Of a DNA stretch of 64,000 bases, positions 19,770-32,789 are shown piece after piece (positions within the stretch are counted from its first letter, which is position 1; the number at the start of each line of letters is the position of its first letter). The notes beneath the pieces are model-generated. The model had not been told where the DNA came from. It did not search any database and saw only the letters and a list, made by a program, of their open reading frames with translations. The stretch is taken from the sequence record PP400777. The stretch is one strand, 5' to 3'. This DNA is from Escherichia phage JM10. The translations under genes were made by a program, and so were the position numbers.

Positions 19770-20072
19770 TTATTTACCTTTAATTACTTTAGCTGCTTCG
19801 ATAGCCGCTTGCTGAAGGTCATCCATAGACATACCGAATTTAGAAGCAAAGTTATCAATTTTCTTTTCGACAGCATTCAAAGGCTTTGCCTGTTTACCTT
19901 CATTAGCGCCAGGAAGAGCGAGAATACGCTCTTTGTCAATATAAAGGCTTACAAGTTTCTTACGGTCTTTATCGGACAAATCATGAAATGAATGGGCCTT
20001 TTTATTTATAGCGGCTTCTAATTTACCTGCACTCACTCGCGCTTCAGTAATAAATTCTTGATAGGTTTTCAT
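19770..20072 (-). CDS. ipII: internal protein (IpII-like) with capsid-targeting sequence
   Basis: N-terminal MKTYQEFITEA is the T4 capsid-targeting sequence (CTS); 100 aa. Confidence 0.6.
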   Translation of the reverse strand: MKTYQEFITEARVSAGKLEAAINKKAHSFHDLSDKDRKKLVSLYIDKERILALPGANEGKQAKPLNAVEKKIDNFASKFGMSMDDLQQAAIEAAKVIKGK

Positions 20073-20100
20073 GTGTTTCCTTGTTTGTTTTGATAGAGTA

Positions 20101-20130
20101 ATTATACCATATTAATACTTAAGCGTAAAC
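20101..20130 (-). promoter_or_regulatory. T4-type early promoter
   Basis: GTTTAC + 18 nt + TGgTATAAT. Confidence 0.5.
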
Positions 20131-20210
20131 CGTTTAAGCTTTACCGCCAGAAATAATTCCGAAGTTGTTAAAATCATATCCAATATCGTCAACATCTACT
20201 TTAGGACTTG

Positions 20211-20396
20211 CTACAACATAAGCAATTTCACTACGTTTTGCATAGGTGTTTTGATTTCTTTACCATCGCCACCTAAGAAAGAATACCCATTACGTTTTAA
20301 TGAGCCAAAGTCTTCCGCATCACCAATGAAAGCTTTAACTTTAAATTTAGGACCTTTGGCATCTGCTTCAACGATAAATTCTTGATACATTTTCAT
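20211..20396 (-). pseudogene. CTS-containing small internal-protein gene, apparently frameshifted
   Basis: MKMYQEFIVEA start; frame ends after 61 aa and continues in the +1 frame for about 28 more codons. Confidence 0.35.
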
Positions 20397-20563
20397 TTTT
20401 CCTTAGTAAATTGATTTACCAAAGTATTTGTACCAAGTCGGGCGTTGAGCAATTTTTTATCTAAGCGTGCTTGACTTATCGCAATGGACGCTTCGGACGG
20501 GTCATAATTTCCTCCAAGTAGTTGATGAATGTATAGTATCAAAACCCTTGGAGGAAGTAAACA

Positions 20564-20845
20564 CTATTTTTCTGAAGCGCCTGAAATATATTTTTCAAGA
20601 CGTTGTTTCATCAGCGAGCCGTTCTTAGCAATTTCTTCCGGTTTATCGCACATACGCAACAAGGCTTCAAGCTTAACGATATCACTGGTGCGCTCAAATT
20701 TGCGAGTATCTATCTTACTAGCAAGTTCAGAAATACGTGCTAATAGACTTTCAGCTTCAACCAAAGCTGCACCTAGCTTAGTTGCAAATGTGTCAGTAGC
20801 TTCGTTAAGAATAGATTCTGATAAAAATTCACTATATGTTTTCAT
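20564..20845 (-). CDS. internal protein (IpIII-position) with capsid-targeting sequence
   Basis: [13 protein letters not shown]; directly upstream of e as ipIII is in T4. Confidence 0.55.
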
Positions 20846-28561: not shown

Positions 28562-28595
28562 AACTTTATGAAATATTTTTATGCCCTAGATACCA

Positions 28596-28621
28596 AAAAG
28601 CCCCAACCATAAGGAAGGGGC
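28596..28621 (-). terminator. rho-independent terminator hairpin (repeat copy B, variant loop)
   Basis: GCCCCTTCCTTATGGTTGGGGC + T-run on minus strand. Confidence 0.5.
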
Positions 28622-28627
28622 ATTCTA

Positions 28628-29092
28628 TTATTTAATTTGTTTAGCAGACCAGATACGGTCTTTAATAAGTTTTTGGATATCTTCAACATACTCAAGGCTA
28701 TGAGCGTGAGGATTATCTTTGAAGCTATGTGCTCGTGCCAGTTTCTGGCCTTCTGTTTTGATTACTAAAAGCTCTTTAAGAATTGCTTCATACTTAGAAA
28801 TAATTCCTTTGGCGATATTTTTTTCTTGAGCTGCTTTAGGGTCTGCTTTTGGCGCAGGTGCTTTACCTGTAGCTTTCTGGAACAATTCACCTGATGCAGC
28901 TAGGCTTTTAAAAACTCGGCTAACAGTATTAGCATTAGTAAAACCTTCGGCTTTAAAATCTCTAATAAAACGGAAACGTTCTTCATCAGAGGCGTCTTTG
29001 TAAGAATATTTACCTGCTTGAATTGCTGCAATCGCAGCGGCTTTTACATCTGAACTAGATTGTTCAGTCAAAAATTCAGCGTATGATTTCAT
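28628..29092 (-). CDS. CTS-tagged candidate internal protein
   Basis: MKSYAEFLTE resembles the T4 capsid-targeting sequence; 154 aa. Confidence 0.5.
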   Translation of the reverse strand: MKSYAEFLTEQSSSDVKAAAIAAIQAGKYSYKDASDEERFRFIRDFKAEGFTNANTVSRVFKSLAASGELFQKATGKAPAPKADPKAAQEKNIAKGIISKYEAILKELLVIKTEGQKLARAHSFKDNPHAHSLEYVEDIQKLIKDRIWSAKQIK

Positions 29093-29137
29093 GTTGCTTT
29101 TCCTAAGTTAATTAACTTATCTATTTATTATTATGCC

Positions 29138-29164
29138 AAAAAGCCCCAACCTTTCGGAAGGGGC
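29138..29164 (-). terminator. rho-independent terminator hairpin (repeat copy C) ending the tRNA unit
   Basis: AGCCCCTTCCGAAAGGTTGGGGCT + TTTTT on minus strand. Confidence 0.55.
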
Positions 29165-29472: not shown

Positions 29473-29549
29473 TGGTCGAGGCAGAAGGATTCTAACCTTC
29501 AACCTACGGATTAGAAATCCGTTGCTCTATACAATTGAGCTATGCCTCG
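29473..29549 (-). tRNA. tRNA-Arg (anticodon UCU), CCA encoded
   Basis: hand-folded cloverleaf: acceptor CGAGGCA/TGCCTCG, D-stem GCTC/GAGC, anticodon stem ACGGA/TCCGT, loop TTTCTAA, T-arm GAAGG-TTAGAAT-CCTTC. Confidence 0.75.
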
Positions 29550-29555
29550 AATATA

Positions 29556-29629
29556 TGACCCAGACCAGATTCGAACTGGTAACCTTTCCCTTATGAGGGG
29601 ACTGCTGCTAACCATTGAGCTACAGGGCC
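29556..29629 (-). tRNA. tRNA with CAU anticodon (Met or Ile2-type)
   Basis: hand-folded: acceptor GGCCCTG/CTGGGTC (one mismatch), anticodon loop CTCATAA, T-arm ACCAG-TTCGAAT-CTGGT; 6 nt from tRNA-Arg. Confidence 0.65.
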
Positions 29630-30395: not shown

Positions 30396-30602
30396 TTACT
30401 CACCTTTTGCAATTTTATCCATAACGATAGCGATTAAGCCGATTAGAAATGCTACTACCAACGAGATAGAGTTTTCAGTTGTTGTCAGTAGTCCACAAAT
30501 GAATCCTACAAACATCGAAAAACTAAAAGCCATTGAAGCAATTACTACAGCAACATTACGAATCAGTTCAGCGCGTTTCATTTTATTTCTCCATTTACTC
30601 AT
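30396..30602 (-). CDS. small membrane protein
   Basis: 68 aa; two hydrophobic helices. Confidence 0.35.
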   Translation of the reverse strand: MSKWRNKMKRAELIRNVAVVIASMAFSFSMFVGFICGLLTTTENSISLVVAFLIGLIAIVMDKIAKGE

Positions 30603-30650
30603 TTGTTTTGATAGGACTACTATAACATAGCCCTATAGGCTTGTATACCT

Positions 30651-30914
30651 TTATTTCAAATATATTGCGTATTTTTTATAGCCACCAGGCTCGTGTCGAA
30701 GACCTTTATCATTCGCAAAACGTTGAATGTTATTGAACTGATTTTCATCAAGTTCGGATGTGTCAAATATGAAAAAGTTTCGTTTGTTACCAAGCGTGAT
30801 ATGCGGAGTTAAGTCAATGTTATACAAATTAAGAATATCAGCAATAACCTGATTGACCGCTTTGTTAATTTTCACACCAGACGATTCTGAGATGAATTCG
30901 TTGAAAGTTTTCAT
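30651..30914 (-). CDS. CTS-tagged candidate internal protein
   Basis: MKTFNEFISE CTS from the internal Met. Confidence 0.5.
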   Translation of the reverse strand: MKTFNEFISESSGVKINKAVNQVIADILNLYNIDLTPHITLGNKRNFFIFDTSELDENQFNNIQRFANDKGLRHEPGGYKKYAIYLK

Positions 30915-30946
30915 TTTAGGTTCCATTTGGTTGTTTTGATAGGACT

Positions 30947-30976
30947 ACTATAACATAGTCCTACCATGATGTAAAC
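30947..30976 (-). promoter_or_regulatory. T4-type early promoter in a PeSL-like cassette
   Basis: GTTTAC + 18 nt + TGtTATAGT; TAGGACTA..TAGTCCTA palindrome. Confidence 0.5.
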
Positions 30977-31287
30977 TATTTTATGCCTTTAGATGAAATA
31001 GTATTCTGGCGTTTGACCCCAGTTTGTGAAAAATCATGGTTATCAATTTGGTCAACTCGCATAACACCAAATGCGGATTTAATTTTGGCTTTTGAACCTT
31101 TTTTGATACTAATTATCATATAAGTATCATTTTTCTTATATTCGAAATTTGTTACTTCAACGCCTTGATTAGAAATTGACTTAATAATAGCATTAGCGTA
31201 TTCATCATCTAACGGACCGGTGGTGTTAATAATAAAATTTTTATCGGCTTTAGTAGCTTCAGCGATAAACTCTTGATAGGTTTTCAT
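30976..31287 (-). CDS. CTS-tagged internal protein at the ipI locus
   Basis: MKTYQEFIAEA CTS; 103 aa; immediately downstream of 57B as ipI is in T4. Confidence 0.55.
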   Translation of the reverse strand: MKTYQEFIAEATKADKNFIINTTGPLDDEYANAIIKSISNQGVEVTNFEYKKNDTYMIISIKKGSKAKIKSAFGVMRVDQIDNHDFSQTGVKRQNTISSKGIK

Positions 31288-31364
31288 TTTATTTCCTTGA
31301 GGTTGTTTATTTGATAGGATGATAGTAACACACCATCATCCTTATGTAAACTGTTTTGTGAAAA

Positions 31365-32050
<686 letters not shown>

Positions 32051-32054
32051 TTTA

Positions 32055-32789
32055 TTACCTTAAGATTGTTTCAATTTTAGAATAAAGCTCTTCTAAAGAG
32101 CCGTCGTTTGTAATAACTAAATCGCCTTCTTCAATAGGCAACCCAGCTTCTGTAATATGTTTATCAGTGGATTCCGTACCAGAGCGAACCACATGAATAA
32201 CTGTAGCACCCATCGCTCTAGCGGTTTCCATTTCATGGACTTGGCGTGTATCGGTTACAATATAGTAATCGAAATCACTTCCAATATAATCCATATAGTT
32301 TAATGCAAAAAGCTTAACCCAATACATACGGTCAAATAAATTAACGACAACATCCGTACCGAGGGCTTGCATAAGACGGCGGACTGACCATGTGTCGTTG
32401 ATATTATTTATAGCTTCACGCAGGACTTCATATGGTTTAATATCTAGATACGAATATCCGCCTTCTAACGATGATAATACTTTAACATTATTAATCGGTA
32501 AATATTGACTTTGCAAATAAATTAGCGCTTCTTCCAATAATTCAATAACATCCAACTTATTGAGATTTAATGGTGTTTCACGGTCATATCCAATGCCTTC
32601 AAAGTATTCGTATTTCAACTCTGTGAATACATCAGGATTTTCAGCATGCCTACGTCCCCAGGCTATTGCTAGAGCGTCTTTAATTGGATACGCTAATTGG
32701 TATTTTACGGATTTAAAGTTTGAATTGATGTAATCAGCAGTAGTGTCTTTACCGCTACGTTTGATGCCACTTAAAAAGATTAGCTCCAT
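32055..32789 (-). CDS. 1: deoxynucleoside monophosphate kinase
   Basis: LSGIKRSGKDT P-loop; matches T4 gp1. Confidence 0.85.
   Translation of the reverse strand: MELIFLSGIKRSGKDTTADYINSNFKSVKYQLAYPIKDALAIAWGRRHAENPDVFTELKYEYFEGIGYDRETPLNLNKLDVIELLEEALIYLQSQYLPINNVKVLSSLEGGYSYLDIKPYEVLREAINNINDTWSVRRLMQALGTDVVVNLFDRMYWVKLFALNYMDYIGSDFDYYIVTDTRQVHEMETARAMGATVIHVVRSGTESTDKHITEAGLPIEEGDLVITNDGSLEELYSKIETILR

Follow-up and report, generated by a model that had tools for sequence, protein, structure and literature searches.

Two consecutive genes of Escherichia phage JM10 (sequence record PP400777) can be assigned from their sequences to two families of internal head proteins, Ip7 and Ip9, which are already named and annotated. 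The repeated promoter, hairpin and leader-coding segments that accompany them are sites at which relatives have gained, lost and exchanged protein bodies. In this study, a stretch of 64,000 nucleotides from this phage (the window) was investigated, with emphasis on gene A (Ip7 family, 103 amino acids (aa), 30976-31287) and gene B (Ip9 family, 87 aa, 30651-30914), both on the minus strand and directly 3' of gene 57B. We consider it somewhat better than an even bet that the two genes are independent cassettes whose products are loaded into the capsid, injected and each directed against one type IV restriction enzyme. Both genes, their leader and the way in which the locus behaves as a set of cassettes have been described and annotated before, and the pair are not new candidates.

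Family identity, leaders and bodies of genes A and B

The product of gene A begins MKTYQEFIAEATKADK, with the start MKTYQEFIAE-ATK (the hyphen marks the predicted cleavage site), and matches phrog_2667 'internal head protein' at E=2e-38, residues 1-103 aligning with profile positions 1-101 of 101. Identity is 66% to T2 ip7 over 100% of the length, 64-71% to the Ip7 proteins of other Tequatrovirus, Citrobacter and Enterobacter phages, and 99-100% to those of p000v and AV115. Its counterpart in mogra is annotated 'internal head protein 7', and gene A is the same gene as RB69ORF156c. Gene A resembles the Ip7 genes of T-even phages (T2 ip7, 'internal head protein 7' of ATK47 and mogra, VR7 ip7; PHROG 2667) in its leader, its size and its locus beside 57B; no difference is substantial, and from RB69ORF156c it departs mainly at its C-terminus (103 aa versus 108 aa).

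The product of gene B begins MKTFNEFISESSGVK, with the start MKTFNEFISE-SSG, and matches phrog_7673 'internal head protein' at E=7e-49 over residues 1-87. It is 71-72% identical to the Ip9 proteins of RB15 and RB32 and 100% identical to that of TH58, and is annotated as Ip9-like in mogra. Homology to the Ip9 family extends over the full length (70-73% identity), with the same leader architecture and locus; the Mosigvirus version is three residues shorter just past the leader and carries Phe4/Asn5 instead of Tyr4/Gln5. The 15-sequence family alignment of Ip9 contains 54 invariant positions. An in-frame ATG at 30926, four codons 5' of the proposed start (30915-30926, minus strand), would prepend MEPK to gene B, and RB69 IpI shares this upstream ATG (MEPK before MKTY there, before MKTF here). 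The leader would not be N-terminal if the upstream ATG were used, and the evidence favours the MKT start because the spacing from the Shine-Dalgarno sequence fits the downstream ATG better.

Near-identical copies of both genes occur in dozens of Mosigvirus genomes, some of them labelled "internal head protein". The first-pass annotation of this DNA had presented the pair as candidate effectors and proposed a search against known internal proteins; that search places both in named families which the annotation had not recognised. A related 'ip7 protein' of phage OLB35 is a 77-aa in-frame chimera that lacks the leader: a stretch of Ip7 (about residues 30-73) runs into the final 32 residues of Ip9. 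It is apparently the result of a deletion between neighbouring cassettes of the two families, or else an artefact of annotation or assembly.

By sequence, both proteins have the features of capsid-targeted internal proteins. The leader codons, read directly from the sequence, occupy 31258-31287 in gene A (MKTYQEFIAE) and 30885-30914 in gene B (MKTFNEFISE). In T4 IPIII, the first ten residues are sufficient to load foreign proteins into the head; targeting depends mostly on residues 4 and 7 of this leader, and cleavage by the prohead protease mostly on residues 8 and 10 (PMC9026906). An aromatic residue at position 4, Phe7, Ile8 and Glu10 are present in both leaders of JM10 and are retained across each family. 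The gene A leader also fits the T4 consensus as quoted in the first-pass annotation. The motif of the prohead protease gp21, (L/I)-x-E followed by a small residue, is matched by IAE-A in gene A and ISE-S in gene B. The pattern MK.[YFH]..[FY][ILV].[EQ] has 6 matches in the six-frame translation of the window, compared with 0.005-0.015 in shuffled sequence, and all 6 lie on the minus strand at the proposed start of open reading frames (ORFs) of 61-154 aa. The earlier claim that both genes open with a T4-type capsid-targeting sequence is thus borne out, with the key residues kept and the motif far above shuffled expectation.

Cleavage after Glu10 is predicted to leave a mature Ip7 of 93 aa (10.3 kDa, isoelectric point (pI) 9.5) and a mature Ip9 of 77 aa (8.9 kDa, pI 9.0). 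A second L-x-E, LDE-N at residues 55-57 of Ip9 (30750-30758, minus strand), fits the minimal prohead-protease pattern; it is invariant in the 15-sequence alignment and sits where a helix of the folded domain is predicted to begin.

Beyond the leader the two proteins are unrelated, as had been claimed from the first reading. They belong to different PHROG families, the profile-profile alignment between them spans the leader region only, and hhalign with the leaders removed returned a probability of 1.3% (P=0.04) over a 42-residue stretch. A likeness between the Ip7 core and the C-terminal half of Ip9 (shared β-α-β-β, BLASTP 31% identity over 42 residues) was considered and dropped because this leader-less comparison was not significant. 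AlphaFold2 predicts a compact α/β domain for Ip9 (mean confidence score pLDDT 83.6), and for Ip7 a ferredoxin-like βαββαβ core followed by a C-terminal tail that is basic and disordered (pLDDT 74.5). These models are generic α/β folds without an informative match; the Foldseek search of Ip9 against BFVD gave one significant match, an unnamed 535-aa protein. The Pfam scan of both proteins gave no hit above threshold, the best being a sub-threshold GDH_2nd match (E=0.03), and Ip7 and Ip9 profiles run against all PDB sequences yielded only noise at E>1 and recovered no solved IpI structure. Clear homology to a protein of unrelated known function, which the first-pass annotation had named as grounds for abandoning its proposal, was not seen in the Pfam, PDB, profile or structure searches.

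Repeated control elements and cassette exchange

The control elements were defined by promoter scan, intergenic alignment and fold energy with its z-score. Every intergenic element contains a T4-early-type promoter with a TG extension, a stable hairpin of 10-12 bp over the -10 box and a Shine-Dalgarno sequence. The element 5' of gene A (31288-31364, minus strand; promoter scan, fold and intergenic alignment) comprises a TG-extended promoter, TTTACA-17-TACTAT (31350-31322), a 12-bp hairpin at 31316-31342 (-16.8 kcal/mol, z -3.4) and the Shine-Dalgarno sequence AAGGAAA. The element 5' of gene B (30915-30975, minus strand; promoter scan, fold and repeat alignment) has the TG-extended promoter TTTACA-17-TATAGT (10/12, 30975-30947) and a 12-bp hairpin at 30937-30966 (-16.9 kcal/mol, z -5.0). 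The third element, between gene B and a tRNA.4-like gene (30603-30650, minus strand; same three kinds of evidence as for gene B), has the promoter TATACA-17-TATAGT and a hairpin at 30611-30636 (-15.3 kcal/mol, z -3.4). The latter two elements each hold one copy of a 33-nt direct repeat (30603-30635 and 30931-30963, 97% identical).

T4-type internal proteins are encoded in polymorphic loci, either the 57B-to-tRNA region, where genes A and B lie, or the ipII/ipIII region. PMC12373910, PMC9026906 and PMC4122927 credit the description of hypervariability at this locus to Repoila et al. 1994, and the first-pass annotation had noted it. To survey it, 33 loci around 57B homologues were taken from viral contigs, and the ORFs between 57B and the tRNA.4-like gene were listed. 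The interval holds 0-3 leader-bearing genes in many combinations, so the earlier description of the locus stands. The cassette types seen were Ip7, Ip9, 74-aa, 69-aa, 77-aa and 97-aa types and others. Gene 57B forms the conserved left anchor and the tRNA.4-like gene the conserved right anchor, the latter following the cassettes in 27 of the 33 loci.

Collinearity of RB69 with JM10 extends past gene A and the following promoter, up to and including codon 9 of gene B; an unrelated IpI body follows, and homology restarts three bases past the gene B stop codon (window 30648). RB69 has therefore kept Ip7 and exchanged the Ip9 body alone for IpI. The second slot of RB69 holds the homologue of T4 IpI, in agreement with the original placement of the two genes at the ipI position, and its body (ATLTSEVIKANKG) has no DNA homology to the Ip9 body. 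Phage p000v lacks gene B, with a breakpoint within the 33-nt direct repeat; TH58 lacks gene A, with a breakpoint in the repeated segment of hairpin, ribosome-binding site and leader codons; and a metagenomic contig (L006) has neither Ip7 nor Ip9. All breakpoints mapped in these four genomes lie in repeated promoter/hairpin or leader-coding sequence. Since the leader codons form a second patch of homology, a body can be exchanged in frame.

The arrangement resembles the promoter-early stem-loop (PeSL) elements (Arbiol et al. 2010; Comeau et al. 2014), which have been proposed as mediators of modular shuffling in T4-like genomes, in a model that its authors tie to older observations on the internal-protein locus (PMC4122927). 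Excision and integration of mini-circles were demonstrated experimentally in RB49/phi1 by Arbiol et al. 2010, as cited in PMC4122927. In both systems an early promoter, a stem-loop and a Shine-Dalgarno sequence are repeated between small variable ORFs, and the breakpoints of indels and replacements lie inside the repeats. They differ in that the hairpin here overlaps the -10 region, whereas the legend of Fig. 3 in PMC4122927 sets the PeSL hairpin just 5' of the promoter, and in that the leader codons here serve as an additional, second recombination site.

Two leader-bearing proteins with known targets allow a closer comparison. T4/RB69 IpI (mature form IPI*), the injected inhibitor of the CT596 GmrSD type IV restriction enzyme, occupies the same locus and in RB69 fills exactly the slot of Ip9. 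RB69 IpI resembles gene B in the kind of leader, the upstream promoter/hairpin element and, at the DNA level, the first nine codons; it differs in a body unrelated to Ip7 or Ip9 and in a 19-residue propeptide, cut after LTE, compared with one of 10 residues. Homology of the mature Ip7 and Ip9 bodies to IPI* was not found in the PDB profile searches, nor for Ip9 in the DNA comparison with RB69. Bas37_0260 of KarlGJung (PHROG 8111), an inhibitor of McrBC, is likewise leader-bearing, fills the corresponding slot, with 57B on one side and the tRNA.4-like gene on the other, and is paired with a second, different leader-bearing gene. Its body belongs to another family, and Ip7 matches phrog_8111 over 20 leader residues only (E=0.004). 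The idea that Bas37_0260 might itself be an Ip7 or Ip9 was ruled out by its membership of phrog_8111; its neighbour belongs to phrog_3499.

Probable role of Ip7 and Ip9

Inhibition of type IV restriction is the likeliest role of the two proteins, by analogy with the four internal proteins of known target, every one of which inhibits a type IV restriction enzyme. T4 Ip1, Ip2 and Ip3 act on three different enzymes of the GmrSD family, one each, and block them without cross-protection (PMC12373910). Related phages encode at least ten internal proteins, according to Repoila et al. 1994 as cited in that paper. Bas37_0260, which is leader-bearing at the same locus in KarlGJung, blocks McrBC (bioRxiv 10.1101/2025.11.20.689424). 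The DNA of RB69 carries arabinosyl-hydroxymethylcytosine (arabinosyl-hmC) and is cut by GmrSD enzymes (PMC6024577), and arabinosylated DNA modification is common to Mosigvirus phages (PMC8594841).

Both cassettes are equipped with a separate early-type promoter that a hairpin overlaps, a ribosome-binding site and ten leader codons, and the two bodies are unrelated. If T4 biology applies, the leader would send each protein into the scaffolding core of the prohead, a gp21-type prohead protease would cut after Glu10 (I-x-E), leaving basic proteins of about 10.3 and 8.9 kDa in the head, and the mature proteins would be injected with the DNA. We propose that Ip7 and Ip9, being injected with the DNA, act ahead of phage gene expression. 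Each would then bind and block one host type IV nuclease (GmrSD, McrBC or similar) that attacks DNA containing arabinosyl-hmC, and a phage with several different cassettes would be able to infect a broader range of strains.

Several points weigh against this reading. Experimental data on Ip7 or Ip9, virion proteomics and host targets included, were not found in the open-access literature, where searches by these names returned only unrelated uses of the abbreviations; we infer the presence of the two proteins in the virion, their cleavage and their injection from T4. Neither body resembles IpI or Bas37_0260, so the target class depends on the four precedents only. An early-type promoter precedes each of genes A and B. 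A canonical late promoter, TATAAATA, is missing from the stretch between 57B and gene B, and the closest copy on the same strand is at 32405-32412, inside gene 1. With early-type promoters next to the genes, late expression for loading into the prohead would depend on read-through or on a late promoter of non-canonical sequence. The Ip9 body is also present, leaderless, in phages beyond the Straboviridae, which speaks against a target bound to hmC DNA. Late read-through into genes A and B from 32405-32412 is nevertheless plausible, as the minus strand from 57B to the end of gene B yielded no terminator-like site.

The distribution of the Ip9 body was determined by exhaustive profile search and tblastn, and homologues were found in three settings. 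The first consists of leader-bearing proteins of more distant origin. The second consists of leaderless proteins of 66-78 aa in Seuratvirus KS_S4, in the 44.5-kb phage OR594183 and in metagenomic contigs, where they lie on short contigs of small unannotated genes. In the third setting, the body forms a domain near the C-terminus of a mosaic protein of about 900 aa in Ackermannviridae (phrog_3867). Ip7, in the searches run here, is nearly confined to T4-like phages, and its leader is always present. The phrog_3867 protein of Kuttervirus and relatives is a patchwork of matching parts across 279 phage records, and some versions carry a 125-aa module after the Ip9-like domain; in Salmonella phage allotria, gene 82 (phrog_3867) adjoins genes annotated as structural. 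In Seuratvirus and Kuttervirus phages the DNA modifications are of kinds other than hmC. Such a distribution suggests that the Ip9 body may be a portable module to which T4-like phages have given a leader, with a target not tied to hmC. A bolder version, offered tentatively and judged unlikely to be correct, is that the Ip9 body is a free-standing portable anti-defence domain delivered differently by lineage: with a leader in T4-like phages, within a mosaic protein (perhaps virion-packaged) in Ackermannviridae, and as a small early protein in siphoviruses. Its target would be a widespread defence.

The same homologues raise the question whether the two proteins, and Ip9 especially, are injected anti-defence effectors with targets other than type IV enzymes, acting on another immune system or a host process. 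The leaderless forms and the fusion in Ackermannviridae agree with such a role, as does the neighbouring 57B/Acb1, whose target is CBASS and which indicates that the region is not limited to anti-restriction. We regard this alternative as rather unlikely, since the record of internal proteins with known targets (four of four directed at type IV enzymes) points the other way, and delivery before gene expression best suits defences that hit incoming DNA at once.

A mainly structural or physical role in the head, through charge neutralisation or as an aid to packing or ejection, would make the variability a sign of weak constraint. The mature forms are basic, the AlphaFold2 model of Ip7 has a disordered tail rich in Lys and Arg, and the proteins are dispensable in some phages, as L006, p000v and TH58 show. 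The bodies, however, are well conserved within each family, and the invariant positions of Ip9 together with its confident compact fold argue for a specific function. Leaderless Ip9 homologues elsewhere cannot be capsid fillers, and T4 Ip1-3, for their part, proved to have specific targets (PMC12373910). We consider the structural explanation improbable. That the proteins are early, cytoplasmic and unpackaged, the leader being a recombination remnant that no longer works as a signal, is very improbable: each gene does have a σ70-like promoter of early type and lacks a canonical late one, and leader-coding DNA that doubles as a recombination site could persist for that reason, but the targeting and cleavage residues are all kept in both genes and in distant family members, the lack of a terminator-like site found on the way to the end of gene B makes late read-through possible, and the 10-residue leader of T4 packages foreign proteins by itself (PMC9026906).

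Genomic surroundings and implications

The minus strand carries every gene of the region, from gene 1 through two tRNAs. Gene 1, a dNMP kinase gene, lies at 32055-32789 and is followed by 57A (31820-32050), between gene 1 and 57B, and by 57B (31365-31820), which is assigned to the Acb1 family of anti-CBASS phosphodiesterases (Pfam PF23474 Acb1, E=1.3e-58; phrog_755) and is annotated 57B in RB69. The internal-protein cassettes therefore adjoin a second counter-defence gene. Genes A and B come directly after 57B as ORFs, confirming the two consecutive leader-bearing genes that had been reported there. The tRNA.4-like gene (30396-30602) encodes a small membrane protein (phrog_1692, E=2e-32), annotated tRNA.4 in RB69 and 'putative membrane protein' in mogra, and is followed by more small genes and the two tRNAs. 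These are the only tRNA genes, Arg-TCT and Met-CAT at 29473-29629 (minus strand), the same as in RB69; the Tequatrovirus KarlGJung has ten in the equivalent region. The 1.6 kb around genes A and B is 96-98% identical to many Mosigvirus Escherichia phages (AV118, pEB20, SF, mogra, phiE142), and the RB69 match covers 84% of its length; the locus is that of a Mosigvirus (RB69-like) phage.

Further leader-bearing ORFs were observed elsewhere in the window, all on the minus strand. A second internal-protein cluster at 19770-20845 contains three: one of 100 aa (19770-20072) in phrog_7857 'internal virion protein', one of 61 aa (20211-20396) that is Ip7-like in the first 18 or so residues only, and one of 93 aa (20564-20845) in phrog_3499, with 48% identity to Bas37_0261. 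Because Bas37_0261 sits at the ipI locus of KarlGJung, this one family occupies different internal-protein loci. Near genes A and B, an ORF at 28628-29092 encodes 154 aa with a leader-like start, MKSYAEFLTE-Q, and pI 9.5; it belongs to phrog_2280 'unknown function', is hypothetical in mogra and has a similar 157-aa ORF in contig L011. It is flanked by two copies (28590-28621 and 29133-29164, 88% identical) of a 32-nt GC-rich, terminator-like hairpin with a T-run, and probably represents an internal protein that has gone unannotated, with a cassette to itself.

Of the weapons of a phage, internal proteins enter the host cytoplasm first. Those with a known target each block a different type IV restriction enzyme, which helps to decide which strains are open to a therapeutic T4-like phage. 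Ip7 and Ip9 are widespread in coliphages, including the arabinosyl-hmC Mosigvirus, and are candidates for matching to orphan GmrSD, McrBC or BrxU-type defences. If the Ip9 body is indeed a portable anti-defence domain, Ip9 would be the first internal protein with an effector domain traceable beyond the T4 group, and the addition of a leader would be a means of converting an ordinary early anti-defence gene into a pre-loaded, injected one.
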